Notes under the pieces: generated by a model
What the model was told of the DNA's origin: nothing
Seen by the model: the letters and a program-made list of their open reading frames with translations, nothing else
The model's database searches: none
NCBI GenBank assembly: GCA_037441705.1
Contig: JBBIRR010000013.1
Location: 1-64,000, forward strand
DNA: 64,000 bases
Direction: 5' to 3'
Origin: Ignavibacteriales bacterium
GTDB taxonomy: Bacteria > Bacteroidota > Ignavibacteria > UBA10030 > UBA6906
Part shown: positions 601 through 49,800 of the stretch, one piece after another
How the letters are laid out: each line of letters starts with the position of its first letter
Numbering within the stretch: the first letter of the stretch is position 1
Program-made: the position numbers and the translations under genes

Positions 601-2337
601 ATGGCTGAGGGATATATTGACCTTTCGCCCATCTTTAGGGCCATTGAGGTGGTCAACAGCAACGTGGCTGCCGTTAATTCCAACGTTCAGATTCTCTCTG
701 ATCTCCAGCAAGCATTGGCATATAAGCAGGATGCAATGGCGCGCACGCAGCTCGAGATGGATGCCTTGCTCAAATTGCTGAGAGCGGAGTTTGACGATTT
801 CGTTGCCCAGGATCGTAAAGCAAAAAGCCTGCACCTTGCCGAAACGCGTGTTGGAAATCTTCGGCAGGAACTGCAAATCAAGTTTGGCTACTACGCCGAA
901 ATCCGGCGAATGGCAACAGGCATTCTGCAGGCCGCTGATACGGGGATCGTCGGCAATGAGACGATTCAGTCCACGACGGAAGAAGTGATGATCAAAGCCC
1001 CCGGTTACTGGCTTGCGCCGGCACTCGTCTCGCTTGCCTCGTGGATTAGAGACGACAGGGCAACCTGCGAGAAAGCGCTGACCGAGTGCCTCAAACGCGA
1101 CGACTACAAGGCAACACTCTTCTTCATGTTGTTGACACGCCGCCTTGGAAGAACTGAGGCAAGCCTCAGTTGGCTGGAGCGATACTTCCTCCACCAAGAC
1201 CCACAGAATCTTGACCGTGAGTTTATCACGATACTGGAGGGAGTGACCACGGGCGTGTTCCCTCCCGCATCGCGCACGGTGATGATGAAGCATGTAAAGA
1301 GCTGGCTCGACCAATTGACGCAAGGCGACCGTTTCATCAACGAGCAGAAAGCCCAGTGGTTGAAATACTACGAAGGTTCGAAGCCTGCTCTGCCGGAAGA
1401 CAGGTATCCTCTTCTCAAACGATTTGCCAAGAACTGGCCTTTGCTCGAAAACTCTCTCCGGGAGGCAAAATCGCAGGAGATCCTTCACACACATTTCAGC
1501 GGTATCCTTTCCTCCGGCTATGATTTTTCATCTTCCGTCAAAGCGAAGGTGGATGAAATACTCACGCAACTCGTCACCAACTTCGATGATGAAGAGCTTC
1601 CGCTTCAAAAACAAGTCCGACTCAATCAGCTTATCATTGAAAAGGAGGGGGACAAAGATGCAGCGCAAGCTGTGATGGATGCGGAAGAGAGCATCTTCAA
1701 AGAGAAAGTAGATTTTCTTCAGATGCTGACGAATGCCGCGTTCAACCCTGAAGCCGCAGGCGTTACCAAAGTGACGCAGACGCTCGCCGTCTCCATCAGC
1801 CAGCCATGGATTCTGGAAGCGCACGATACGTTCACAGCACAATGCAGGAGCAGGGTGCCGCAGACGGTAGAATTGGTGATTGATGGCTTTGCCACCGCAA
1901 CAAAAGACGGAAGCGATGAGAACGACCAGGTGGCAAAGCAGGAGAGTTTCTATGCCTCCGAACTGGAAAAAGCGCTGAAGGAGGTGCCATTTCCGACTGC
2001 TAATGTAGCCATTGGTGCTTTAATAGCGTTGGGCGGGCTACTGTTGGCCATAAGCGCAACAGTCATCGGGCTAGTTGGTACAGTCATCGGTGGGATAATG
2101 ATCTGGACCAATATCAATAGCATGGAGAAGAAAAAACAGGCAGTGCGAGATATGATTGGTGAAAGAAGAAGGAAAGGGAAGGAAGTCCTCAGAGGCTGCC
2201 TGGCAGAGACCGTCGACTACCGCAAAGAATTGAGAACGGAAGATGCAAAGGCGGAGAATGTGCGTCAGTTGCTCGTCTCCATTACCCCGCAGGATTTCTC
2301 GAGCGTGTCACTCGAAACGGCACGAAATATCATTTGA
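601..2337 (+). CDS. Hypothetical coiled-coil/helical protein with C-terminal hydrophobic membrane hairpin (578 aa)
   Basis: Long ORF with a heptad-like N-terminus. Hydrophobic stretch ANVAIGALIALGGLLLAISATVIGLVGTVIGGIMIW near the C-terminus is followed by a basic helix. Confidence 0.85.
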   Translation: MAEGYIDLSPIFRAIEVVNSNVAAVNSNVQILSDLQQALAYKQDAMARTQLEMDALLKLLRAEFDDFVAQDRKAKSLHLAETRVGNLRQELQIKFGYYAEIRRMATGILQAADTGIVGNETIQSTTEEVMIKAPGYWLAPALVSLASWIRDDRATCEKALTECLKRDDYKATLFFMLLTRRLGRTEASLSWLERYFLHQDPQNLDREFITILEGVTTGVFPPASRTVMMKHVKSWLDQLTQGDRFINEQKAQWLKYYEGSKPALPEDRYPLLKRFAKNWPLLENSLREAKSQEILHTHFSGILSSGYDFSSSVKAKVDEILTQLVTNFDDEELPLQKQVRLNQLIIEKEGDKDAAQAVMDAEESIFKEKVDFLQMLTNAAFNPEAAGVTKVTQTLAVSISQPWILEAHDTFTAQCRSRVPQTVELVIDGFATATKDGSDENDQVAKQESFYASELEKALKEVPFPTANVAIGALIALGGLLLAISATVIGLVGTVIGGIMIWTNINSMEKKKQAVRDMIGERRRKGKEVLRGCLAETVDYRKELRTEDAKAENVRQLLVSITPQDFSSVSLETARNII

Positions 2338-2355
2338 TCAGAGGAGGAGTAAGTC

Positions 2356-2790
2356 ATGGCAAAATCTGAAAAACCTCATTCGGAAGGCAAGGCAACCACA
2401 GCCAATCTCCCTACATGGGATATTCTGCCTCCGTTCCAATTCATCAATCCTCGGACGAGAACTGTTGAACGAAAAGAAGAAACAAAACCAAACGACGCTA
2501 TTCAACCTCCTCGCTCGGTCCTCACACCCTCCGTTGCGCCGACTTCGACCGTTGTTGCGCCGTCATCACCGCAGGTGACGGAAAAATGTCCAGCCTGCGG
2601 TTCGCCTGTCCAGCCAGAGGCAGAGTTCTGCGGTGAATGCGGACTCCGGCTTTCTAATTCTGCAATCGAGGCTCCTCCACATGCTCTCCGGTGCCCTCAT
2701 TGTGGAGCGGAAGTAGAGCATGAGAAGTCGGAGGATACAACCAAGGAACACACTTGTCCAGAATGTGGCAAGAATTTCATCGTAGGGTAA
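2356..2790 (+). CDS. Zinc-ribbon protein (four CxxC pairs) with Pro/Ser/Thr-rich N-terminal linker
   Basis: SD GAGGAGG 2341-2347. Motifs CPACG...FCGECG and CPHCG...CPECG. Stop overlaps the next ATG (TAATG). Confidence 0.85.
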   Translation: MAKSEKPHSEGKATTANLPTWDILPPFQFINPRTRTVERKEETKPNDAIQPPRSVLTPSVAPTSTVVAPSSPQVTEKCPACGSPVQPEAEFCGECGLRLSNSAIEAPPHALRCPHCGAEVEHEKSEDTTKEHTCPECGKNFIVG

Positions 2791-3320
2791 TGTCCTCGCC
2801 TTCTACATACTTTGAGTGGTGTCAGCTCTTGGAGCGTTTTGCGAAAGGAGATGACGGAGTTCTTTCCGAGCTTGAGCAGGGATCGTTTGTCGTTGATGCG
2901 GGAACAGTCTACAGGTTCTACAACAAGGTGCAGGATGCCTACGTTGAGCGAAAGAAACAATGGGCCGACAAGTTCAACCGCTCGTTTCAGATGCAGACCA
3001 TTCGAACGGAGAATGACATCGCCCTTGTGTTGCGCGACGCGAAAGCCAATCTACAACCTCTTGCTCGCCTGATTTCGATAAGCGCATTCCCGAAGGACCT
3101 GCAGGAAACGCTCAAGAAAGACTTCGACGGGTTCATTACCGAGACGAGAAAGAACCTCAGGGAATCCATAAAGAAGAACCACCCCGGCAACGAAAAGCTC
3201 CTGTTTGTCGTGAACACATTTGATTTCTTTGGAAAGGCGAAGGAGAGTGTATCAACCCAGAACTCTCTATCACAACCTGCGTCTGACGTCAACCACCCAA
3301 AACGGAGGATACTGTTCTGA
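2790..3320 (+). CDS. Hypothetical helical protein (176 aa)
   Basis: ATG 2790 overlaps the upstream TAA and its TGA overlaps the ATPase ATG (TGATG). Ends HPKRRILF. Confidence 0.8.
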   Translation: MSSPSTYFEWCQLLERFAKGDDGVLSELEQGSFVVDAGTVYRFYNKVQDAYVERKKQWADKFNRSFQMQTIRTENDIALVLRDAKANLQPLARLISISAFPKDLQETLKKDFDGFITETRKNLRESIKKNHPGNEKLLFVVNTFDFFGKAKESVSTQNSLSQPASDVNHPKRRILF

Positions 3321-4870
3321 TGGCCCACAAATTGGAATTCAAACAAACCCTTCTCAGAATGTTCCGAGCAAGGATCCCTTTTATCTCCATCAACAGCATA
3401 GAACGCGCACGAGTACTTGAAGTTGTTCAGCAGCTCGCCGAAGAGATCAATATTCCGATTTTTGTCCATAGCCTGTCGCACGGGATGATGGATATCAAGA
3501 CAAAGAAGTATATCAACGAGGATCGTTCCGTTGCCGGTGGGCTGGATTTTGCCGTGCAGAACATTGCGCAGCGTCAAAACCTGACGTTCGTCTTCACGGA
3601 AATCACCGACATTGAGGAAGACAATATCGTTTCCCGCCACCTCTACGATTGTGTTGTGCAGGCAATTGATCGGGGGGGCTCGATATGTGTCATCACGACC
3701 AAAGGCATCTGGCCGCAGTTGCAACGCCTCGGCATGACCGTCGTACTCGATCCGCCGAACGAGGAAGAGATGTTGGAAATTGTGAAGGAGTGTGTGACGC
3801 CGTACAAAGGTTCGATCCCTCTTGAGTGGGATGAAAGCGATTACAAAATGGCGGCGACAATTCTTGCAAACATGACCAAGATTGAAGCCGAAAATGTGTT
3901 GGCCACGCAAATGGCAAAAGGCTCGCTGACCAAGGATGATATCAAGGAACTGAGTGCTGCCAAAGACAAACTCTTCAGCAACATCTCAGGTCTTGAGAAA
4001 GTCAGGATTGATCCTAATACCCTTTCGGTCGCGGGATTGGAGGGCCTGCGCAAGTGGTTAGACAATCAACGCCAGCTCCTGACGGCAGATTTGAAGCCGA
4101 GAAAGCTGAGACCGCCGCGAGGAGTTTTGCTGGTCGGAGTTCCCGGTTGTGGTAAGTCGCTTTCTGCCAAGTACATTGCTGCATCGTGGAATCTTCCCCT
4201 TTATCGTCTCGACTTTGCCTCGATTCAAGGTATGTATGTCGGACAATCCGAGAACCGCTTGAAGGACGCATTCGCCTCCGCCGATCATGCAGCGCCATGC
4301 GTTCTGTGGATTGACGAGATCGAGAAAGGATTGTCCGCAAACGCTTCCGACTCGTCGGGTGTTACGACGCGCATGATTGGACAATTCCTGTTCTGGCTGC
4401 AGGAAAGCTCTGCGAAAGTGTTTGTCGCGGCAACTGCCAACGACGTTACCAAACTTCCGCCAGAGCTACTGCGCAGGGGCAGATTCGATGAACTCTTCTT
4501 TGTTGACCTCCCCGCTGAAGCTGAAAGGAAGGATATCATTGATCTCTACATCAGGCGAAACCTCTTGAAACCCCCGTCGACGGAGACCTATGCGAAGCTT
4601 GTTGCACAATCGGAGGGCTTTGCAGGCGCCGATCTCGAAAGTGCGGTGAGGGAGGTAGCGGTTCAAGCCGTTATCCACGGGGACGAGATCGTCAACGATG
4701 ACTTGTACCTGAAGTGTTTCAACAATATCGTCCCGCTCAGCAAGACGGCACCGGAACGGATCGAGGCAATCCGACAGTGGGGACGGGAGCGGGCGGTTCC
4801 TGCATCGGGAATTTCATGGGATGGGGTTCAGGTCGAAAGGCCAGTGGGACGACGGTCAATCTTGCTGTGA
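3320..4870 (+). CDS. AAA+ ATPase, Ycf46/SpoVK-like (degenerate N-terminal module plus intact C-terminal AAA module)
   Basis: Walker A GVPGCGKS, pore loop MYVGQSE, Walker B VLWIDEIEK, second region of homology TANDVTKLPPELLRRGRFD, lid GFAGADLE, and a Ycf46-type tail IEAIRQWGRERAVPAS. Confidence 0.92.
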   Translation: MAHKLEFKQTLLRMFRARIPFISINSIERARVLEVVQQLAEEINIPIFVHSLSHGMMDIKTKKYINEDRSVAGGLDFAVQNIAQRQNLTFVFTEITDIEEDNIVSRHLYDCVVQAIDRGGSICVITTKGIWPQLQRLGMTVVLDPPNEEEMLEIVKECVTPYKGSIPLEWDESDYKMAATILANMTKIEAENVLATQMAKGSLTKDDIKELSAAKDKLFSNISGLEKVRIDPNTLSVAGLEGLRKWLDNQRQLLTADLKPRKLRPPRGVLLVGVPGCGKSLSAKYIAASWNLPLYRLDFASIQGMYVGQSENRLKDAFASADHAAPCVLWIDEIEKGLSANASDSSGVTTRMIGQFLFWLQESSAKVFVAATANDVTKLPPELLRRGRFDELFFVDLPAEAERKDIIDLYIRRNLLKPPSTETYAKLVAQSEGFAGADLESAVREVAVQAVIHGDEIVNDDLYLKCFNNIVPLSKTAPERIEAIRQWGRERAVPASGISWDGVQVERPVGRRSILL

Positions 4871-4880
4871 AGGCCGCTAC

Positions 4881-5201
4881 GTGAAGAACGCGCTCAACAT
4901 CGCCATGATCATCACGCTGATCCCAACCGTCCTTCGACTCGCGTTCAAGAAGGAAATCGGAGCTGAACAGGCAGCACTGATGCTGATAGTCGGAGTGTTC
5001 TTCATTGCGGGCGGCAAACCCCTTGTAAAGATCGTGTCAGCCGTAACCGCACTATACCTTTTTTCCCGAGAGATCACCGGCGGGATCGGAGTCGAGTCGG
5101 TGTTCGGACAACTGATTGCTCTTGCAATCGTGCTCATAGGCTTTTATGTGATGTTCCGTCCGCTGTTTCCTCGTTCGTGGAAGAATGACGACGAGGATTG
5201 A
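4881..5201 (+). CDS. Small integral membrane protein (3-4 TM, 106 aa)
   Basis: GTG 4881 lies 10 nt after the ATPase stop. Almost entirely hydrophobic with an acidic C-terminus (KNDDED). Confidence 0.7.
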   Translation: MKNALNIAMIITLIPTVLRLAFKKEIGAEQAALMLIVGVFFIAGGKPLVKIVSAVTALYLFSREITGGIGVESVFGQLIALAIVLIGFYVMFRPLFPRSWKNDDED

Positions 5202-5384
5202 GTCAGATCTAGCGGGATAGGGAAATACCGCCCACCAAGAAGGAAGGTGTCGCAGCACTAATGTGAACTCATTCTTCAACAAAGCGATGGACAGGCAACA
5301 ATAGTCAGCATGATGGGTCGAGTGCTGGCAAGATATTGAAGTCTATCCAGTCACCTTCAGTTGTACGATAGGAGCTTGATCCGA

Positions 5385-6746
5385 ATGCCCACCTGCCCAA
5401 AATGCGGCCACATCAATGCCGGCGGGAAATTCTGCATCAAATGCGGAACCCGACTCTCTGCTTCATCACCAGAAATTTCCAGACACGAGACATCGAAAGA
5501 CACTGTACTTCCTGCGTCTGCTACTCAACCGATGTCCGTTACACCGGAACCGAAATCTCAGCCGTCAGTCGGGCACGACCAAAGACCCCCTTCCTCTGCA
5601 ACAGGCGGTGTCACTCCAACTTCAGTAGCAATGCCTTTCGATACAAGAAAGTTGGTGCTCATTGCCGGTGCGGCAGTTGTTGTTGTGCTCGTTGGTGTTG
5701 TTCTGTTCCCGCGACTGACGAAGTCTCCACAACAGGAGGCCGCGCACATGGAAAACCCATCTCGTATGTCAACGGAACATGGGGTCACCCCTGCAGCCGA
5801 ACCAACCACTTCCGACACGAGAAGTGTGCAGCTCGTTGCGCCGGAGAGTTGGAGAATTTCTGCAGGGGAACTCTTTGCCCTTGATGGGTCACCTCGGAGT
5901 GCAGCCATCGCTCAACTGATCTCTGACCTCGAGTCACCATACGGTGAGGGTATGCCTTTCACAAAACAAGAGCTGCTGGATTTGCTCTCCCGACCAGAAG
6001 CTCAAGAAGTGTACTATGACAAGATTCTCAAATACGCCACGCCGGTCAGCCTCGAAATCCAAAAGAAGGAACACGAGGACTACACGAAGATTTTCATGAA
6101 GGAGAGCTACCAAAAGGCCGGACTCGACTTTCTGAGGACTCAGCGAGAGTACCTTGATAGGGCTGAACAGGAGTACGGCGTATTGCGACGGGATATTGTC
6201 TCTGTTTTGATTTGGGAATCGGGATTAGGCAAGTTTACCGGCGATTTCCGTGAGTTCAATGTCTTTCTCGGGCTCATTCTCTTTCTTGACAGAGCCCAAA
6301 ATGCCGCGGTGCAGAAATTGGTGGCCGAAGGAAAACCGAATCCACTCAGCAATCCCGCCCACGCCGAAAAGGAACGGAAGCGACTCGACAACCGAAAAGC
6401 CGAGTCAGTGCGGAATCTCGTTGCGCTCTTGCGTCTGTCGAAGCAGATTGGAGCGGACCCGCTCGGCATCACAGGGTCGTGGGGTGGGGCCATCGGCTAC
6501 GTGCAATTCATGCCCTCAAATCTCAAATATGCCGTGGATGGGGACGGTGATGGCAAAGTCAACCTTTCTTCATGGCCTGACGCTATTATGAGTGTCGCCT
6601 ACTACCTCAAGACCCTGGGCAACTACGAATCAACAGATGCAGGTAGGCGACGTGCATTGTTCCGTTACAATCCGAGCAAGGAATATGTTGATGGGGTGAA
6701 GCTTGTGGCGGAGACAATCTGGAGGAGACATTTGAACGGGGAGTAG
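5385..6746 (+). CDS. Zinc-ribbon / single-TM / lytic murein transglycosylase (MltB, SLT_2 family) fusion
   Basis: AGGAG 5370-5374 then ATG 5385. N-terminal CPKCG...FCIKCG. TM LVLIAGAAVVVVLVGVVLF. MltB motifs WESGLG (catalytic Glu), GSWGGAIGYVQFMPS, EF-hand-like DGDGDGKVNL and YNPSKEYV. Confidence 0.88.
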   Translation: MPTCPKCGHINAGGKFCIKCGTRLSASSPEISRHETSKDTVLPASATQPMSVTPEPKSQPSVGHDQRPPSSATGGVTPTSVAMPFDTRKLVLIAGAAVVVVLVGVVLFPRLTKSPQQEAAHMENPSRMSTEHGVTPAAEPTTSDTRSVQLVAPESWRISAGELFALDGSPRSAAIAQLISDLESPYGEGMPFTKQELLDLLSRPEAQEVYYDKILKYATPVSLEIQKKEHEDYTKIFMKESYQKAGLDFLRTQREYLDRAEQEYGVLRRDIVSVLIWESGLGKFTGDFREFNVFLGLILFLDRAQNAAVQKLVAEGKPNPLSNPAHAEKERKRLDNRKAESVRNLVALLRLSKQIGADPLGITGSWGGAIGYVQFMPSNLKYAVDGDGDGKVNLSSWPDAIMSVAYYLKTLGNYESTDAGRRRALFRYNPSKEYVDGVKLVAETIWRRHLNGE

Positions 6747-6959
6747 TCGCTACTTGGGTTTTCTTTTCTCATACTCATTGGACGACATTCAAAAGATGGG
6801 CTCGTTCCCCGGTCGTGTTGGTTCGATACATATGGAAATCGGTGGGACCACCGTGAGCCCTCTCATCCAAGTGAAACGAAGGTAAAGCAAGTATCACTGT
6901 CGTCATCATAAACATCCACCTTACAACCATCCACACATCAATTTCATTGGAGGCACGCA

Positions 6960-7120
6960 ATGTCGCCGGGTCAAATGTGGCAGCGGTAAGAGCATCGAAG
7001 TCAAGTGGGATGAGACCAGCAGGAGGTGTATGTCGCGTATGGGGATGGAGTTATGTGGGGAAAGCATCTTGTGCTGCCGAAGCGATGAGGAAGGCAAAAG
7101 CGTGGTTGTACAACAAGTGA
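6960..7120 (+). pseudogene. Probable frameshifted micro-gene (about 53 aa if repaired)
   Basis: GGAGG 6949-6953 plus ATG 6960. Three small frameshifts give M..RVKCGSGKSIEVKWDETS/EVYVAY/GWSYVGKASCAAEAMRKAKAWLYNK-stop. Reconstruction by eye. Confidence 0.4.
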
Positions 7121-7479
7121 ATCTCTGAGCTTAGTAAGAGGAACAAGACGCTTTGACACAGTCAAGGTACCAATTTGCGGTTTTTGATCATTAAGACCCA
7201 TGTCAATATGATGATCATCTCGGGGCTCACTGTAAGTTAGGTTGCGAGTATTCCACCATTGGAGAGTACGCCAATTCATTTCGCCTTTGGAACGAGAGGT
7301 CTCCCTCATCGTTTGAATTTAGCTTTGTGGCAAAGTTCGACCGTTAACGGAATTCGAAGGCTCAGCCGCAGCGGCAAGGACTAACTGAGAATGCGGACGC
7401 CTACAGGAAGCAGTAGACATAATCGGTAAACCAGTTTGTCATCTAAACAGCACACAATCACAGACAATCGGAGGTTACC

Positions 7480-7674
7480 ATGAGCAGCTACCCATCATGT
7501 CCGCGGTGCGGACGCAAAGCCAAGAAGGCGGCCTTTTCCAACTGGTTCCCCGTGTACACGTGTAGAAAGTGCGGAGAAAAGTATTGCAGCGACTGCGGCC
7601 GCGGCTCTGGAATAACATGTCCTGAGTGTGGCTCGACGGAGTACTCGCAGTATGATAAGGTGTACTCGGAGTAG
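7480..7674 (+). CDS. Small 8-Cys zinc-finger protein (64 aa)
   Basis: GGAGG 7470-7474, ATG 7480. Four CxxC pairs: CPRC, CRKC, CSDC, CPEC. Confidence 0.75.
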   Translation: MSSYPSCPRCGRKAKKAAFSNWFPVYTCRKCGEKYCSDCGRGSGITCPECGSTEYSQYDKVYSE

Positions 7675-7957
7675 GCATTGCTTTTTGATCATGTAATCAC
7701 TCAAATGAAAGAGGATCGGGAATATTCGAACGGCCGAGCATTATCGATTGCCGCGACGTTGACTCATCTCTATTCTCCAGCAGCCGTGCACCCTGATGAG
7801 GCAGACTATCTCAAGAATAGCTTAACCTAACAGAGCCGATTTCGAAAGTCAGAAAGGAGGACATGCGCGACCGACAGAGAGGCATCGCTCCTTCCTTTCG
7901 TCATCCCGACGCAAGGCTTGGCAAAAAAGGAGGAAACCTCGAGCCGAGCATGAAAGG

Positions 7958-7984
7958 AATCCCGGTACGCCGGGATTTTTTTTT
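7958..7984 (+). terminator. Rho-independent terminator
   Basis: AATCCCGG-TACG-CCGGGATT perfect stem running into a T9 tract. Confidence 0.75.
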
Positions 7985-8103
7985 GCGGTGAGATGGCGGA
8001 CAGGCCATTGTTGGTTTGCAACACGGCCTTTTCTTATCTTTTGTTCAGCGAACTACATCTCGCCCCACACGGCGGGGAAACCGTTCATGTGCATGAGAGT
8101 CGT

Positions 8104-11100
8104 ATGGAAGTCAACGCCAGCCATTTGCAGGCATTTCTCGAGGAGTTCGGCCCGAACGCCGGACTTGTTGAGGAGTTGTTCGAGGAGTATTTGAGAAACC
8201 CGGCCGCGGTCAGCAAGTCGTGGCAGCAGTATTTTGCCGGCATCGTTCGCTCGGCGGGCGGAAACGGAAAAGGCGCCGAAGTGGCGAGTACTGCCCAACC
8301 ACCGATCCAGCAATCCATCGCCCCATCAATCCGATCAGCCGCGATCGAGTCGTCGGAGCAAGCCACCGCCATCCGCGGCGTCGCCGCGAGGATCGTCGAG
8401 AACATGGAGGCGAGTCTTTCTCTCCCGACGGCTACCTCGGTGCGAACGATTCCTGTGAAGGTGTTGGAGGAAAACCGGCGCCTGCTCAACCAGTACCTTT
8501 CGGTGCGGGGCGGGTTGAAGATTTCGTATACCCACATTATCGCCTGGGCGATTGTGAAGGCCCTCGGCGATCACCCGAACCTCAACGCTGCGTTTGCGCG
8601 CATCGGCGGGGTGCCGCATCGAACCGAACGTCCGCACGTGAACATCGGTCTTGCCGTCGATCTCACACGCAAGGATGGCACTCGTTCGCTTGTTGTACCG
8701 AACGTGAAGCGCGCCGAGCAGATGAACTTCGCGCAGTTTGTTGAAGGGTACGACTCCATCATCAAGAAGGCACGGGCAAACGCGCTTGATCCTTCCGACT
8801 TTCAGGGGACATCCATCACACTCACCAATCCCGGTACCGTGGGCACGGTTGCGTCCATCCCGCGCCTGATGCCCGGCCAGGGTGCCATCATTGCAACGGG
8901 GGCAATCAATCTGCCGGCGGAGAACCACGGCATGTCGCTGGAAACGCTCTCCGCGCTCGGCATCAGCAAGGTGATGACGATGACGTGTACGTACGATCAT
9001 CGTGTCATTCAGGGAGCCGAGTCGGGCGAGTTCCTTGCGCGGATTCACGCGCTGCTTCTGGGCGAGGACGGTTTCTACGACGCGCTCTTTGCCGATCTGG
9101 AGATTCCCTATGAGCCGGTGCGCTGGCAAACGGACAGGCATCCTCTCGTCGGTGCGGCGCAGATGGATGCGTACATCGAGAAGCAGGCACGGGTTCTGCA
9201 ACTCATCAACGCCTACCGCGTGCGGGGTCATCTGATTGCGCATCTCGATCCTCTCGTCAACAAGCCCGGGCATCATCCCGAGCTTGATCCCGCGTTCTAT
9301 GGATTGACGATCTGGGATCTGGATCGTGAGTTTATTACGGGTGGACTCGGCGGGAAGCCGCGCGCAACGCTGCGGGAGATTCTCGACATCCTGCGCGAAA
9401 CCTACTGCGGCACCATCGGCGTCGAGTACATGAACATTCAGGACACCGCGCAGAAGCAATGGTTGCAGGAACGAATGGAGCCTGTCCGCAACCAGCATCC
9501 GCTGAGCAGCGAACGGCGCAAGCAGATTCTCGGGAAGCTGACTGCTGCGGAGGCCTTCGAGCGATTCCTTCACACAAAATTCATCGGTCACAAGCGTTTC
9601 TCGCTCGAAGGCGGCGAAACGATGATGGCGATTCTCGATGTGTTGCTCGATGACGCGGCCGATGCCGGTGTGCGCGAGGTGGTGATCGGCATGGCACACC
9701 GCGGGCGCCTGAACGTTCTTGCCAACACCATCGGCAAGCCGCTGGCGAAGCTCTTCTCGGAGTTCGAGGGCTATGTTGACCCGAGCACGACACAGGGGTC
9801 GGGGGATGTGAAGTATCATCTCGGTGCACGCGGAGTGCATCGCAGTGCAAGCGGAAAGGAAGTGACCGTCTCAGTTGCACCGAACCCCAGTCACCTCGAA
9901 GCCGTCAACCCCGTCGTGGAGGGCATTGTTCGCGCGAAGCAGGATCGGTTGGGAGACGCGGAACACCGGCAGGTGGTTCCGGTGCTCATTCATGGCGATG
10001 CCGCCTTTGCCGGTCAGGGTATGGTTGCCGAGACGCTCAACCTCTCGCAGCTCCATGGCTATCGCACGGGAGGGACGATTCACCTTATCATCAACAACCA
10101 GATTGGATTCACGACGACGCCCGAAGACGCTCGCTCGACACCCTACTGCACCGACGTTGCCAAGATGGTGCAGGCGCCGATTTTTCATGTGAACGGCGAC
10201 GATTCCGATGCCTGCGTCCGCGTTGCCCGCCTGGCGTTCGAATACCGCCGCACGTTCAAGAAGGACGTCGTCATTGATATGTTCTGCTATCGTCGTCACG
10301 GCCACAATGAAGGTGATGAACCGAGTTACACGCAGCCGCTGTTGTACAAGACCATCAAGCAGCATCCTTCCGTGCGGCAGTTGTATGCCGGGCGGCTTGT
10401 GCGGGAGGGCATCATCGCGCAGAATGAGGCGGAGGCGATGAAGGACGACGCGCGCCTTCGGTACGAGCGCGCATTCGAGGCATCGCAGAAGCGAGAGTTG
10501 CATTTCAAGCCCGATGTGCCGCTTGCTGTGGAACCCGACAGGCTTGCGCGCATGCAACCAGCAGGGACGACGGCCGTTCCGCTCTCGCTGCTGCATGAAG
10601 TGACCCGCGCCCTTACGACGCTGCCGCCGGGGTTTTCCATCAACCCAAAACTTCAGCGCATCCTCGACGAGCGTGCTCTGCTGCTGGAGGGCGACACTCG
10701 GATTGACTGGGCATTTGCCGAGGCGCTTGCGTTTGGAACGCTCGTTGCTGAAGGCACGCCGGTCCGTCTCAGCGGTCAGGATAGCGGACGCGGAACGTTC
10801 AGTCAGCGGCATGCAATTTTGTATGATGCAACAAGCGGCGCAGAGTACGTGCCTTTGAATCATGTGCGTGATGGTCAGGCCCCATTTGCGGTTTATGATA
10901 GTCTGCTTTCGGAAGCCGCCGTGCTCGGCTTCGAGTTCGGCTACAGCGTTGCCGATCCGCTCGCGCTGGTGATGTGGGAGGCGCAGTTCGGCGACTTCGC
11001 CAACGGCGCGCAGGTTATTATTGACCAGTTTCTTGCCGGATCGGAAGCGAAGTGGCAGCAGCCGTGCGACCTTGTGCTGCTGCTTCCGCATGGCTACGAG

Positions 11101-11727
11101 GGGCAGGGGCCTGAACACTCCAGCGCGCGGCTGGAACGTTTCCTGCAACTCTGTGCCGAAGAGAACCTGCAGGTCGTTAACTGCACCACACCTGCGCAGT
11201 ACTTCCACGTGCTGCGCCGGCAGATGCGTGATGCACGCCGGAAGCCGCTTGTCGTTATGACGCCGAAGAGTCTGTTGCGCCATCCCAAGGTGGTGTCTTC
11301 ACAAGACGATTTTGTACGCGGACAGTTCAACGAAGTACTGGACGACGCGTCGGTAACCGACCCATCGGCCATCAAGCGTGTCGTGCTGTGCAGCGGGAAA
11401 GTGTATTACGACTTGCTTGCAGGCCGCACGATGCATCCCAATTCTGCTGCGGCGCTTGTGCGCCTCGAGCAATTCTATTCCTTCCCGTCAGAGTCTGTTC
11501 GAGCAGTGCTCCAGAAGTATGCAGGAGCGAAAGAGATAGTGTGGTGTCAGGAAGAGCCGAAGAATATGGGTGCGTGGACGTTTGTTCAACCGTATGTGAT
11601 GGAGTTGATGGGGGAAGGGCAAAGGCTCTCCTACGTTGGGCGTCCGGCAAGCGCGGCGACCGCAACGGGATCGCTCAGGGTCCACAACGCCGAGCAGGAG
11701 GCGTTGGTGAAGCAAGCGCTGGCGTGA
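8104..11727 (+). CDS. kgd: Multifunctional 2-oxoglutarate decarboxylase/dehydrogenase (E2o catalytic domain fused to E1o; Kgd/OdhA type)
   Basis: N-terminal FGPNAGLVEELFEEY. Acyltransferase motif TYDHRVIQGAESG. E1 motifs GMAHRGRLN, HGDAAFAGQG, WEAQFGDF and PHGYEGQGPEHSS. Start 8104 preferred over 7993. Confidence 0.95.
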   Translation: MEVNASHLQAFLEEFGPNAGLVEELFEEYLRNPAAVSKSWQQYFAGIVRSAGGNGKGAEVASTAQPPIQQSIAPSIRSAAIESSEQATAIRGVAARIVENMEASLSLPTATSVRTIPVKVLEENRRLLNQYLSVRGGLKISYTHIIAWAIVKALGDHPNLNAAFARIGGVPHRTERPHVNIGLAVDLTRKDGTRSLVVPNVKRAEQMNFAQFVEGYDSIIKKARANALDPSDFQGTSITLTNPGTVGTVASIPRLMPGQGAIIATGAINLPAENHGMSLETLSALGISKVMTMTCTYDHRVIQGAESGEFLARIHALLLGEDGFYDALFADLEIPYEPVRWQTDRHPLVGAAQMDAYIEKQARVLQLINAYRVRGHLIAHLDPLVNKPGHHPELDPAFYGLTIWDLDREFITGGLGGKPRATLREILDILRETYCGTIGVEYMNIQDTAQKQWLQERMEPVRNQHPLSSERRKQILGKLTAAEAFERFLHTKFIGHKRFSLEGGETMMAILDVLLDDAADAGVREVVIGMAHRGRLNVLANTIGKPLAKLFSEFEGYVDPSTTQGSGDVKYHLGARGVHRSASGKEVTVSVAPNPSHLEAVNPVVEGIVRAKQDRLGDAEHRQVVPVLIHGDAAFAGQGMVAETLNLSQLHGYRTGGTIHLIINNQIGFTTTPEDARSTPYCTDVAKMVQAPIFHVNGDDSDACVRVARLAFEYRRTFKKDVVIDMFCYRRHGHNEGDEPSYTQPLLYKTIKQHPSVRQLYAGRLVREGIIAQNEAEAMKDDARLRYERAFEASQKRELHFKPDVPLAVEPDRLARMQPAGTTAVPLSLLHEVTRALTTLPPGFSINPKLQRILDERALLLEGDTRIDWAFAEALAFGTLVAEGTPVRLSGQDSGRGTFSQRHAILYDATSGAEYVPLNHVRDGQAPFAVYDSLLSEAAVLGFEFGYSVADPLALVMWEAQFGDFANGAQVIIDQFLAGSEAKWQQPCDLVLLLPHGYEGQGPEHSSARLERFLQLCAEENLQVVNCTTPAQYFHVLRRQMRDARRKPLVVMTPKSLLRHPKVVSSQDDFVRGQFNEVLDDASVTDPSAIKRVVLCSGKVYYDLLAGRTMHPNSAAALVRLEQFYSFPSESVRAVLQKYAGAKEIVWCQEEPKNMGAWTFVQPYVMELMGEGQRLSYVGRPASAATATGSLRVHNAEQEALVKQALA

Positions 11728-11748
11728 TCGTTCTTCCGGACTAGCCTC

Positions 11749-12078
11749 CTAATTCCATGTAATTTTCTTTCCCGTTTTCAGAATCTCCTCCACAAAGGGA
11801 TTGTCGGGCGTGAAGTCTTCGGTCTTGAAGGGGTGAACCTCCACATCAATGTAATGTCGTACGAAGTCGTTTACTATTGCCCTGGTAACAAGCTGTCTGT
11901 CATAAAAGCGGATTCCACGGAAGTCATCGGAGACAATGGCCACATCAATATCGCTGTACTCGCGCGGTCTGCCCGTAGCGTAGGAACCGAAAAGAAACGC
12001 CTCGCGAATGGAAAAATAAGCGGACAAGGTTCTTAGGAGTCTTTGCAGTATCAGCTCTACATCTTCTGCAGAATACAT
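11749..12078 (-). CDS. Minimal nucleotidyltransferase (MNT) antitoxin
   Basis: FLFGSYATG...SDIDVAIV motif, 109 aa. Overlaps the HEPN gene. Confidence 0.88.
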   Translation of the reverse strand: MYSAEDVELILQRLLRTLSAYFSIREAFLFGSYATGRPREYSDIDVAIVSDDFRGIRFYDRQLVTRAIVNDFVRHYIDVEVHPFKTEDFTPDNPFVEEILKTGKKITWN

Positions 12079-12449
12079 TGGTAATACTCCCTCAATTGAT
12101 CAAGTTGCTCTCTGCTGAATTCCTTTGTGCACAGTTCGTAGAATGCCAACTTCTGGTCAGGGTAGCGTCCCTCTATATTGAAGCCTGTCACCCGATCAAG
12201 GTATTCAACTTCCTCGGGGCTCAACGTAAGTCCCGCACCATGTGCGAGCTTTACAAGGTTATGCGTCCTTGGAGGAATGTTCTCGTGATTGTTCTTGACC
12301 CAGAGAGCCTTCAGAACTTTTTCCAAAGCGAGGTGACCTATGAATAGCGCCCAGTCGTACCTCCCAGCTTTGAAGATATCCTCCGCAGATTCTAAGTCAT
12401 GCTGCGCGATAGTAAGCCAGTAGCGGATATGATCGTCTTTCGTCATCAT
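12057..12449 (-). CDS. HEPN domain protein (putative toxin)
   Basis: A..DLESA, HLALEKVLKAL, PPRTHNL and RYP motifs typical of MNT-associated HEPN proteins. Confidence 0.88.
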   Translation of the reverse strand: MMTKDDHIRYWLTIAQHDLESAEDIFKAGRYDWALFIGHLALEKVLKALWVKNNHENIPPRTHNLVKLAHGAGLTLSPEEVEYLDRVTGFNIEGRYPDQKLAFYELCTKEFSREQLDQLREYYQCILQKM

Positions 12450-12588
12450 ACAAGAGGGCGCATGCAGTCGGCGGCGCGTACAAATATAGCTTCTCCTCCA
12501 GTCGTATGCAACATGCGGATAGATTTCCGTTCGGGCTTTTCATATTTTGAACTGTGTTGCCCATTCTTTTATCTGATGAGATGCCCAC

Positions 12589-13020
12589 ATGCCGAAGCAC
12601 CCTCGCCCATTCGAAACACACGTGACATTTCAGGTAAAGTCGTACGACGTGGACTACGTCGGCTACGTGCACAACACGGTGTACATTCGCTGGCTGGAGG
12701 ATATGCGTCTTGCGATGCTGGCGCCCTACTATTCGCTTGAGCGGTTTGTGAAGGAGGGAACATCTCCGATCATCTTGCGGACGACCATCGAATACAAGAA
12801 GCCGCTGCGTTTGTTCGATACGTTCACCGGTACGGTATGGGTCAGTCATTTGGAGGGTGTGCGTTGGACCGTGAGCCACGAACTTGTGCATGATGGGGTG
12901 ATTGCAGCGACGGCGGAACAGTCTGGTGTTTTCATCAATCTTGCCACGCGCCGACCCGTTGCTACGCCAAAGGAGCTGATGGAAAAATACCAGACCTGGC
13001 TTGCTGAGAATGCGAGATGA
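12589..13020 (+). CDS. Acyl-CoA thioesterase (YbgC/FadM hot-dog family)
   Basis: YDVDYVGYVHNTVYIRWLE motif and IEYKKPL. Confidence 0.88.
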   Translation: MPKHPRPFETHVTFQVKSYDVDYVGYVHNTVYIRWLEDMRLAMLAPYYSLERFVKEGTSPIILRTTIEYKKPLRLFDTFTGTVWVSHLEGVRWTVSHELVHDGVIAATAEQSGVFINLATRRPVATPKELMEKYQTWLAENAR

Positions 13021-46830: not shown

Positions 46831-49800
46831 GTGAAGAAGATTTTCAAATGGCTTGCCTACGTTTCTGCCGGCATCATTGCTCTGGCCAGTATCGTTGCCG
46901 GCGTGAGTCAGACGCAATTCTTTCGCGATCGGCTTCGGTCGTTCGCTCTCGCACAGCTTGATTCCCTGCTCGATGCCGAGGTACGCCTCGGCGAAATTCG
47001 CGGCAATCTCATCACCGGCTTCTCCATTGATTCCGTCTTCATTGCCGTCCAGGGCGAACCGCTCATCAGCGCCGAGCGCCTTGTCCTTCGCTACGATCTC
47101 TTTCAGATTCCTTCTCGGCGCATCACCATCAGCAGCCTGATTCTTGTTCATCCCGAAGTTGCCTTCATCTGCGGAGCGGACGGCGTTTGGAATTTCGAGC
47201 GCATGGTGCGGCCCACACCCCAGGATTCGGCATCCCGGCCATTCGATTGGCCCATCAAAGTTGATTGGCTCGAAATCAAGGACGGCTCCATCCGACTTCT
47301 TGATTCTGCGGCGCTGGCTGCGCCGGATCATGAGACTACCGGTCTCTACTACGTCGAGTATCATGATTTCGCCCTGCACAATGTGAACCTCGTTGCCACC
47401 TCCTGCTCGATCACCCCGAGCGAGAAGCGAGCGCGTATCGCGGCATTGAGCTTCGATTCGGATCGTCCTCCGATCCACCTCAAATCGTTTTCCGGTGAGT
47501 TCAAGGTCACCCCTCAAGAGGCATCGGTCAAGAATATGATCGTGCAGACGGCGCGGTCGCACCTCATGCTGAACGCGGCGCTGAAAGACGTCAACCTCTT
47601 TGAGGGCCTGGAGCTTTCCGATCTGAAACAGAAACCCGTTGAGCTTTCCCTGCGCGCCCGGAGTCTCGATCTCGGCGAGCTGAAGCGCTTCATTCATCAG
47701 CTCGAGTTCTTGCACGGGGATGTGAAGGCGGAAATCGTCGCCGAAGGGGAATTCGGTCGTTTGGACATCAAGCAGATCGATCTCCTGACCCGCGCTTCCG
47801 AATTACATCTTGCAGGTACGCTCTCCAACCTGCATAGGCCCGACGCGCTGGAGCTCCACATCAAGTGTCGCGAGAGTGTCATCAACTACGCCGACGTCAT
47901 GGCGCTGATGCCCTCGTTTTCTTTGCCGGACATCAGCGCCATCGGCCCCGCAGGCATCTCCTTCGATTTCGACGGCACGCCGCTGCAGTTCACAACTGCG
48001 CTTTCCGTCCAGACGGATGCGGGATCGGTCTCCACGACGGGACTTGCGCTGACCATCGGCGGAGAGGAATCGCTCCGATATGACGGCGAGTTCACATTGC
48101 ACGCTGTGGATCTCTCCCGCGTTCTTCCGGAGAGTGAATGGACATCTTCTCTCACCGGCACGCTGCGCGTCAGCGGCGGCGGCACGTCGTTGGCCAACCT
48201 TGCAGCGCGGACTGAGCTTCTGATCGATTCGTCATACATCGGCGGGCAATCCGTGGAGGCAACCTCGGTAATCGTCACTGCCGCGCAGAGGAGTGTTGTC
48301 GGCGTTGCCCGGCTTACCCTGGGCACGATGCACACAGAGCTTGAAGCAAAGCTTGAGGACGCCACCGGCCCGGCGCCCCGCTTCAGCATTGCGGGGGCAA
48401 TTTCGTCGTTGAACCTCGCGGACCTTCTCAACGATCCAATTCACAACAGCGATCTGACGCTCCACCTCAACGCCGAAGGCACCGGCCTGGAGTGGGAGAA
48501 GCTGAACTGCACGGCGCTGTTGGACTTCTCCTCGTCTCGCTATCGCGAGTACAGGATCGACTCCGGCGCTGTGCACCTGCTGATCGACCAACGCGATCCG
48601 ATGCACAGTGCCATCAGCATCAATTCCAGTCTGGCAGACTTCTCTCTCAAGGGACAGTTTGATCTGGACTACATGGTGGGACTGATTCGATACGAGATCA
48701 ACAGCCTTCGGCTTGCAGTGGGCAAACGCCTGCGGGCGATTGATTCGACGTTAGCGACGACATTGGATGAGCGGGCCCTGGTTGCGTTAGGGGACCGCCT
48801 TGCTAAGCAGAAGAAGCGGTTGAACGCGGAGTACGAATTGCGCGTCAAAGACCTCGAGCCGCTTTCCATCCTTACCGGCAACCGTACGTTCGATGCCGTG
48901 GGTGTGATTGAAGGATCGCTGCAGGGAGATTACGCGATGCTGGCAGGCGATGCGCGGCTCGAACTGCGGGAGTTCTTCTACGGCAATGCCGATTCGGGCA
49001 TGCTGGTGCAGAACGGCCTCGCGACGCTTCGTTTCAACGATCTGCATCCTCTCAATCCGCTCTCCTCGCTCACCCTGCGCATTCGCGCCGACGCCGGCAA
49101 AATGCACATCAACCGCACGAAGCTCGACACGCTCAAGTTCGGTATCTTCTATGACAAAGAGTACGCGGGGTTTGTTGTGCAGGCTGATTACGACCGGGAC
49201 TATCACTTCCGCACCAATGGTCAGGTGGGGGTGACCGATGACGGAGTCCAGTTCACGCTCAGCAATCTCACGTTAGGCTATCAGGATTATCTCTGGCAAG
49301 CAGATGACGGGGCGGTGATTGCAGTGAATCCGCACAGCATGCGTGTTCATTCGTTCACGCTGCGGAGAGATTCACAAGCGGTGGTGCTGAACGGGTCCTT
49401 GGTCGCAGCCGATTCGGTTGAGGCAGCGGTGCACTGCCGCTCGCTTGATCTGGTAAGTCTGAAGTATGTCCTTCGGAAGGAAGAACAAGCAGGCGAAGCG
49501 CGTCTGTTCGAAGGCCGGGCGGATTTTGATGCATATGCTCACGGCACGCTTGCCAATCCGATCTATGACGCGACGCTTACGGCGCGCAATGTGTCGTTCC
49601 GCGGTTTTCCCTTCGGCGAGATTCACGGCACGCTGAACTATCGTGATGAGCAACTTGCGGCCAACTTTTCCATTGACAATCGGGCAGACAGGACCTCCGG
49701 CCAACCCGACCTCACCATTCGCGGCACCCTTCCCGTCCGCCTTGCGATAACGGGCGTTGACGCACGCTTTCCGGACACGCCGATGGATTTCGAGATCAAG

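Follow-up and report, generated by a model that had tools for sequence, protein, structure and literature searches.

Shared C-terminal docking tails are the route by which proteasome activators were linked to the core particle and by which Bpa was found. Such tails are established in the p97/Cdc48 clade (PMC4254994). The terminal residues GQYL are what Mpa uses to dock on the 20S core, and Bpa, an unrelated protein, uses them to enter the same pockets; Bpa has these last four residues of Mpa and competes with it, and removal of the motif abolishes the interaction (PMC4254994). We have analysed a 64,000-nucleotide stretch of DNA from an Ignavibacteriales bacterium (assembly GCA_037441705.1, contig JBBIRR010000013.1, positions 1–64,000; "the window" in what follows), the first 5 kb of which are a tightly packed plus-strand operon encoding p154, p578, p144, p188 and an AAA ATPase. 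Three of these proteins, p578, p188 and the ATPase, end in a tail of the form R-x-h-h (h, hydrophobic; usually R-R-x-[IV]-[ILV]). From the pattern of conservation we estimate, at a probability of about 0.6, that this tail is a selected short linear motif and a shared docking peptide with one site for all of its copies. A like signature marks a widespread, uncharacterised AAA module in four bacterial phyla and related modules in many phages, and literature searches on Ycf46, on phage Cdc48-like tails and on shared AAA+ docking tails found no description of the operon or the tail. (The label Ycf46 for the ATPase family stems from source labels only.)

The proposed arrangement is as follows. A p97-like ATPase would bear the tail at its C-terminal end, behind a disordered linker, and copies of it would have been placed on the operon partners p188 and p578, which would be recruited to the same machine through the shared binding site; the ATPase ring, with its own six tails, would either compete with the partner tails or be docked by them. 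We infer docking as the function from sequence, and the basis is that the tails are rare by chance, conserved across phyla unlike the linkers (in the ATPase and p188), and of co-varying flavours in the wider family. A peptide of 5–7 residues would then give a direct handle on the receptor and clients of the ATPase, and would also predict which neighbouring genes belong to the machine.

Translation confirms the similar basic-hydrophobic ends of the three proteins that a preliminary description of the window had pointed out: ETARNII in p578 (2314–2334, core R-N-I-I), KRRILF in p188 (3300–3317) and GRRSILL in the 516-residue ATPase (4847–4867). The same description had placed the tails after a polar linker. 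This holds for the ATPase and p188, where a polar or Pro-rich stretch precedes the tail, and less so for p578, in which that stretch is partly conserved with an I-S-P-E-Q-Y element ~10 residues upstream. The linker of the ATPase, residues 497–509 (ISWDGVQVERPV, 4808–4846), follows a conserved WGRERAVPASG. Of 3082 proxy genes called over the whole genome (longest non-overlapping open reading frames, ORFs, of at least 100 residues), 7 encode a protein that ends in R-x(1-2)-I-[LI], one extra residue being allowed after the motif, and three of the seven are the operon neighbours. The likeness is real and well beyond chance; the motif was chosen after the tails had been seen, so that its evidential weight rests on conservation.

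The closest functional parallel is with the HbYX/GQYL endings of PAN, Rpt, archaeal Cdc48, Mpa/ARC and the non-ATPase Bpa, in which a short C-terminal peptide is likewise common to an AAA ATPase and an unrelated protein. Unlike HbYX, the operon tails have no penultimate Tyr; an HbYX-like end was found in 1 of 106 non-redundant operon ATPases (locus L043, ..MLYP) and in none of the three tails of the window. A Pfam scan of the operon also found no peptidase gene. The ATPase folds like the D1–D2 tandem of p97/Cdc48, the clade with established docking tails, and this we count in favour of docking. Recognition of C-terminal motifs on several clients by one AAA ATPase is also the principle of MIT–MIM pairing (Vps4/ESCRT-III), from which the operon differs in that its ATPase lacks an MIT domain and has a D1-like N-terminal half (Pfam, AlphaFold2) and in that Vps4 itself has no client motif. 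MIMs are helical motifs of another sequence. The role proposed earlier, comparable to that of MIM or HbYX tails, thus finds partial support by analogy with the HbYX logic, and the resemblance does not extend to sequence, where the tails are neither.

Among known tails, HslU has the one closest in sequence, a flexible C-terminus by which an AAA+ hexamer binds its partner ring and activates it (PMC6429459). HslU of this genome (TIGR00390, 649 bits against a cut-off of 362) ends ..DLSRYIL and is among the four other matches to the motif; HslV adjoins it, the hslVU pair lying at 47006–48929 of contig C11 (G000, locus L271). A key determinant of the HslU-type tail is stated in PMC4106860 to be an aromatic residue, F or Y, that comes after the Arg and before the final I-L. 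This is not the pattern of the operon tails, where the position after the anchor Arg is most commonly K (22), V (21) or S (14) among 82 ATPase tails and is S, R and N in the three tails of the window. HslU also belongs to the ClpX/HslU clade whereas the operon ATPase belongs to the classic AAA clade, and the tail of HslUV is on the ATPase only whereas in the operon it is on the partners too.

Encapsulin cargo-loading offers a further likeness, since there too unrelated proteins encoded by adjacent genes have a short peptide in common, set at the C-terminus after a flexible linker. An encapsulin cargo peptide was rejected: no Linocin_M18 (PF04454) was found in the genome (100% complete) or the operon, while three control genomes matched. 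The constant partner of the operon tails, unlike those of encapsulin cargo, is an ATPase, with no shell gene.

Conservation and sharing of the tails

The operon was absent from the 40 close relatives searched. Of these, 37 gave a match at E ≤ 1e-20, FtsH-like and partial apart from one exception that is full-length at 30% identity and without the operon. Homologues of the ATPase at 68–92% identity are found under the labels of several Bacteroidota lineages, Ignavibacteriales and others, and at least 590 confirmed matching stretches are present in one genome collection. The best 80 of the 590 stretches (79 loci) were taken for the locus analysis. They come from Bacteroidota, Bacillota, Actinomycetota and Pseudomonadota, and by ORF calls and profile searches their gene content matches that of the window, namely p154, p578, a small ORF, p188 and the ATPase, with p154 placed behind the ATPase in Clostridia- and Streptococcus-type loci.

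A strict motif, [RK][RK]x(0-1)[ILVM][ILVMF] within the last 10 residues, is present in 65/76 ATPases, 41/72 p188, 8/69 p578 and 0/63 p154 proteins and in 10/550 flanking genes; left out of these counts were the window itself (L001), L002 and L107–L109, which are distant ATPases without the operon. Addition of metagenome and viral loci, removal of identical rows and the requirement of complete ATPase, p578 and p188 genes gave a set of 97 non-redundant loci. Here looser motifs within the last 14 residues, R-x(0-1)-h-h for the ATPase and p188 and R-x-h-[h/K/R] for p578, were found in 79 ATPases, 51 p188 and 55 p578 proteins, as compared with 7–9% of flanking genes (167/1833 for the first pattern and 130/1833 for the second).

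The end R-x(0-1)-h-h(-h) is kept in 119 of the 120 closest ATPase homologues (68–92% identity) while the preceding 19–20 residues vary. When sequences are aligned on the anchor Arg, each linker position carries 0.6–1.2 bits in both the ATPase and p188, and the residue before the anchor Arg, which is not conditioned by the pattern, carries 2.2 and 3.1 bits, respectively. The hydrophobic positions of the tail are conserved as well as the arginines. In p578, R575 is at least 90% conserved, but it is usually a single basic residue at a fixed distance from the conserved I-S-P-E-Q-Y element. A conserved tail on an unconserved linker is therefore what homologues show for the ATPase, and for p188 where it is tailed, and in part for p578. 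Clostridia- and Streptococcus-type p188 stops at the folded domain, without linker or tail; the Clostridia-type end IVRNNKVNxF was considered as a variant tail and rejected, since the alignment shows it to be the end of the folded domain.

Tail sharing recurs in distant relatives of the ATPase. The ATPase of the window matches phrog_8638 over residues 6–497 (E = 3e-93), and the distant full-length relatives, at 28–35% identity, are mostly on viral contigs, belong to phrog_8638 and lack the operon. A frequent end of these proteins is R-x-h-[DE]-h, for example GRALDL. Counted over non-redundant loci (dropped if less than 2.5 kb lay downstream, unless the neighbour was seen), this type of tail is present on 38 of 41 distant ATPases with a phrog_11021-like neighbour versus 8 of 40 without one, and several of the eight exceptions adjoin other neighbours with a matching tail. 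The phrog_11021-like neighbours themselves have h-[DE]-h within the last six residues in 21 of 35 cases, versus 38 of 1056 other genes. The ends ERNIDI and ERNIDL, on two HHH-domain proteins, are found next to GRTLDF, proteins of 413–429 residues ending RAAMLEL or RAGMIEV adjoin LALEL or RALEV, and the end RVIRR is found on three genes of one locus. The flavour of the tail thus follows the module, and the ATPase is tailed mostly when its neighbour is likewise, so that tail sharing is a rule of the ATPase family. The operon conforms to it, being a full-length phrog_8638 relative with unrelated neighbours, p188 and p578, that have a like tail. This recurrent sharing between the ATPase family and its gene neighbours supports the earlier proposal that the operon forms one machine.

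A conserved gene triad is seen in the phage loci (L194–L269, e.g. L237 at 5620–8384), consisting of the phrog_8638 ATPase, phrog_11021 and phrog_11784. The second is a protein of ~250–310 residues with a Pro/Ala-rich linker and the h-[DE]-h tail. The third, a small Cys/His protein of ~110 residues that accompanies the phage ATPase/phrog_11021 pair, starts MPCDT, ends HSHDGGxTWxxH and has invariant C3, D61, C63 and R66 and a near-invariant HSHD; the single complete phage locus without it, L248, has no tails. Homology of the cellular and phage partners (p154 with phrog_11784, p188 with phrog_11021) was rejected at hhalign probabilities of 0.1–0.4%, and the p578 profile found a single locus among viral contigs, on the same contig as L191.

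The ATPase and the candidate receptors

Residues 234–473 of the ATPase (gene at 3320–4870; this region at 4019–4738) form an active classic AAA domain with its lid, having GVPGCGKS as Walker A and WIDEIE as Walker B. Its match to PF00004 (E = 1e-29, 104 bits against a cut-off of 21.2) places the protein in the classic AAA family, and the closest sequences in the PDB to the C-terminal half are the D2 domains of VAT and p97. Residues 1–230 (3320–4009) have no P-loop and no Pfam match, and hence none to an MIT domain; they are predicted to be a degenerate D1-like alpha/beta domain. The AlphaFold2 model, built from 106 sequences, has a predicted local distance difference test score (pLDDT) of 86.5, and as a whole aligns with D1–D2 of p97/Cdc48 over ~560 columns with a template modelling score of up to 0.71. 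The predicted structure is therefore a tandem of a dead D1 and a D2 as in p97, without the N-domain. The linker and tail (residues 501–516) have a pLDDT of ~51–54 in the monomer.

More specific family assignments were rejected. As a member of Cdc48/p97/VAT (TIGR01243) the protein scores 110 bits against a cut-off of 802 and lacks both the N-domain and a P-loop in the D1-like half. As IetA/IteA it scores 72 bits against a cut-off of 510 (NF042959), with the PADLOC IetA models matching the AAA domain only; the other operon proteins have no PADLOC match, to the partner protease IetS or otherwise. It is also far below the cut-offs of PAN and CdvC. The D1–D2 likeness of the fold together with scores below these cut-offs suggests a protein that works like a type II AAA unfoldase without being a member of those families. 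Five alignment columns, R18, A195, V272, L338 and the tail arginine R512, are conserved in the two groups of tail-bearing ATPases and not in the distant tail-less ones; as the tail was used to define the groups, the finding is circular for R512, and the other four are leads only.

As to where the tails might dock, all tail-sharing modules have the ATPase in common and no other component, so that a site on the ring itself is the most economical receptor; we rate it as plausible at somewhat worse than even odds. In that case p154 may act on or with the ATPase's own tail, and a receptor on the ring would, if true, make tail mimicry a new way to regulate a p97-like ATPase. The second candidate, and a distinctly less probable one, is p154, a small protein without a tail (116–580 as the longest ORF; 152 residues if read from the ATG at 122), because loss of p154 accompanies loss of the ATPase tail. 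Among loci with enough context the ATPase is tailed in 72 of 72 with p154 versus 1 of 18 without it, 12 further loci being without context. The p154-bearing sister loci L130, L131 and L133, which lie inside a tail-less clade of uncultured Bacilli type, are also tailed. When the entire genomes that contain L103, L087 and L041 were searched with a p154 profile there was no match, as against one copy in each of four out of four control genomes. The two features have been lost together in two lineages, with L041 as the one exception. A complex prediction for the full ATPase with p154 scored 0.00; it was run without controls and counts neither for nor against binding.

Invariant residues in 52 p154 sequences are R39, D51, G83, C88, H97, I106, H109, Y132, E136 and G149. 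In the AlphaFold2 model (pLDDT 81) C88, H97, H109 and E136 are on neighbouring predicted strands, a set that would suit a metal site or a catalytic or sensor role. Foldseek found nothing in the PDB at E ≤ 0.001 and nothing in BFVD, and a profile search of the PDB gave 0 matches; a Cache-like sensor domain was rejected since the best Z in a wide VIA-align comparison, 3.6, is below the useful level. There are 441 p154 clusters at E ≤ 0.001, and among the 150 listed nearly all are stand-alone. One, P0204, is a fusion of a zinc ribbon, a protein kinase and p154. Among the matches listed there is no p154–ATPase fusion, P0237 having the look of a deletion chimera.

A broader and rather speculative possibility, slightly less probable to us than a receptor on the ring, is that the tail is the address code of a family of p97-like AAA machines in which the tails of ring and client compete for one pocket. 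The pocket could be on the ring or on the small Cys/His partner (p154, or phrog_11784 in phages), which would amount to the logic of proteasome activators without a proteasome. The flavours R-R-x-h-h, R-x-h-[DE]-h and RVIRR would prevent cross-talk between co-resident modules, and in the operon of the window the ring would be tied to the membrane protein p578 by this code.

Docking and its alternatives

A number of observations weigh against a docking peptide with a single site. The tails have been gained and lost separately among lineages, and all three are present together in only 27 of the 97 loci. There are 10 loci where p578 is still tailed although p154 and the ATPase tail are both missing, and locus L041 keeps all its tails with no p154 in the genome. 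One hub for all the tails is thus doubtful, and the common hub of the preliminary description is not established. On the ATPase tree there are three p154 changes and two tail changes, making two concordant pairs and one neutral case (p = 0.5, sign test). The motif of p578, with a single Arg inside a longer conserved segment, may be a different element. Many tails have 1–3 extra residues (G, MDD, LSA), and there is thus no need for a free carboxylate in a fixed position. Docking of the ATPase tail in cis is not visible in the AlphaFold2 monomer, where the tail is at low confidence.

The arginines of p188 are moreover partly explained by the ribosome-binding site of the ATPase gene, the codons CGG AGG of its tail forming a Shine–Dalgarno-like GGAGG 8–12 nt before the ATPase ATG. 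The share of AGA and AGG among Arg codons is 49% in p188 tails versus 22% in the body of the gene; corresponding values are 22% versus 26% for the ATPase and 34% versus 25% for p578, that is, no or slight enrichment. In most operons no conserved gene follows that of the ATPase, whose tail codons are like those of the body, so that this overlap cannot explain the phenomenon. What stands of the earlier proposal of a shared docking or degron peptide is the functional shared peptide, on the strength of its conservation and of the phage modules with co-varying flavour; docking is the interpretation we favour, and a degron is not established.

The best of the alternatives, though an unlikely one, is that the unstructured tails are pore-entry tags, a role also suggested in the preliminary description: by them p188 and p578 would be drawn into the unfoldase that the operon itself encodes, through its central pore. 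The ATPase is of the classic-clade, p97-like unfoldase type and the tails sit on disordered linkers, and basic-hydrophobic C-terminal recognition signals are known for other AAA+ unfoldases (ssrA and the MuA-type signals of ClpX). However, the ATPase is itself tagged and, across the family, mainly when its neighbour is tagged (38/41 versus 8/40), which is more readily explained if the tails compete for a site than if they are substrate tags. Nor are pore loops known to require a motif so specific or one that co-varies in flavour.

We consider it improbable that the tails are degrons for housekeeping proteases of the ClpXP, Lon or HslUV type and give the three proteins a short lifetime, like that of labile components of defence or toxin–antitoxin systems. 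Non-polar C-terminal ends are classic bacterial degrons, and the operon is in variable regions where some loci adjoin NERD, T5orf172, Abi_2 or E2/ThiF genes. The flavour nevertheless follows the module, R-R-x-h-h being cellular and R-x-h-[DE]-h and RVIRR belonging to phages, and a signal for a host protease would not account for this.

Binding of the basic-hydrophobic ends to the inner face of the membrane, bringing the ATPase and p188 to p578, has even less to recommend it. The composition, Arg followed by Ile, Leu or Val, and the two transmembrane helices of p578 would agree with such an anchor, but p578 has the motif though it needs no anchor, five residues are very short for an amphipathic anchor, and the Streptomyces-type tails end acidic (RRIVFMDD) while the phage flavour has an internal Asp or Glu.

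There is a very small chance that the tails imitate the C-terminus of HslU (..SRYIL) and dock the ATPase and its partners onto the HslV peptidase of the host. It is true that HslU is one of only four other proteins of the genome that fit the motif and that HslV adjoins it, and HslU binds HslV by its C-terminal end (PMC6429459). A PF00227 ring is present in the genome of the window (HslV) and in genomes G044 and G046, but was not found in two of the five tail-bearing genomes searched, the Streptococcus-type G045 and G043, for which completeness is not given; both have tail-bearing operons.

Finally, the absence of any function, with the tails a chance likeness or a by-product of ribosome-binding sites and 3' gene overlaps, would agree with the Shine–Dalgarno-like CGG AGG of p188 and its AGA/AGG excess but is already contradicted by the counts and can practically be discarded, the ATPase gene being the last conserved one in most operons with tail Arg codons that match its body, and the hydrophobic positions being conserved, with the tail kept over four phyla and in phage modules.

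The operon and its surroundings

All features of the operon are on the plus strand. Known families are confined to the ATPase (PF00004) and to the zinc ribbons of p144 (Zn_ribbon_3, DZR and related Pfam families); p154, p578 and p188 have no match in Pfam, NCBIfam or PADLOC. The p578 gene (601–2337) encodes an N-terminal coiled coil with a large cytosolic domain, two transmembrane helices, a C-terminal helix, the I-S-P-E-Q-Y element and the tail. Its assignment as a SLATT effector with two transmembrane helices (PF18181) was rejected, SLATT_1 scoring 16.8 bits against a cut-off of 26.3 and matching one of 52 homologues at E ≤ 0.01. ESM Atlas returned merely "hypothetical protein" clusters for p578, and the PDB profile search merely coiled-coil noise. 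In the tail-less Clostridiales-type locus L103 two coiled-coil proteins of ~570 residues (2915–4633 and 8488–10188) flank the operon and are possibly p578 paralogues.

The small motif protein p144 (2356–2790) has in the window two zinc ribbons at its C-terminal end and, near the N-terminus, the conserved linear motif LPTWDILPP-FQFINPRTR (residues 18–35, 2407–2460). A homologous small ORF is found between p578 and p188 in other loci (L032–L191), compared with which the order within p144 is reversed. The p144-type motif, [FLMV]PxW[DSNE]hxP[P..], is present in 98 of 104 non-redundant loci and lies 5–15 residues from the stop in 97 of the 98. It is the most constant element of the operon, with the form [FL]-P-x-W-[DS]-h-x-P-P followed by h-h-R-R, and persists in the clade where p154 and the ATPase tail are both missing.

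The longest ORF of p188, which consists of a helical domain, the unconserved linker and the tail, is 2754–3320, but its start is probably the ATG at 2790 (2790–3320, 176 residues), as fits the starts of homologues. This ATG overlaps the stop of p144 as TAATG at 2788–2792, and the start of the ATPase gene overlaps the stop of p188 as TGATG.

The genes that flank the operon vary by locus and include NERD and T5orf172 (L050), Abi_2 (L075), HerA-like, E2 and ThiF (L190) and a serine recombinase (L191). Two operon loci are on contigs classed as viral. In one of the viral contigs, L190, genes for TPR, zinc-ribbon, DnaJ/beta-helix, prokaryotic E2 and ThiF-like proteins (7559–12824) stand beside a complete tail-bearing operon, and this E2/ThiF neighbourhood resembles a ubiquitin-like conjugation cassette. 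The patchy, island-like distribution would fit an accessory, possibly defensive system.

Two ORFs downstream in the window are outside the conserved operon. The first (4821–5201) encodes a small membrane protein with a homologue after the ATPase in L031 only and a weak match in L039; the second (5361–6746) encodes a protein with a zinc ribbon and an SLT_2 lytic transglycosylase domain.

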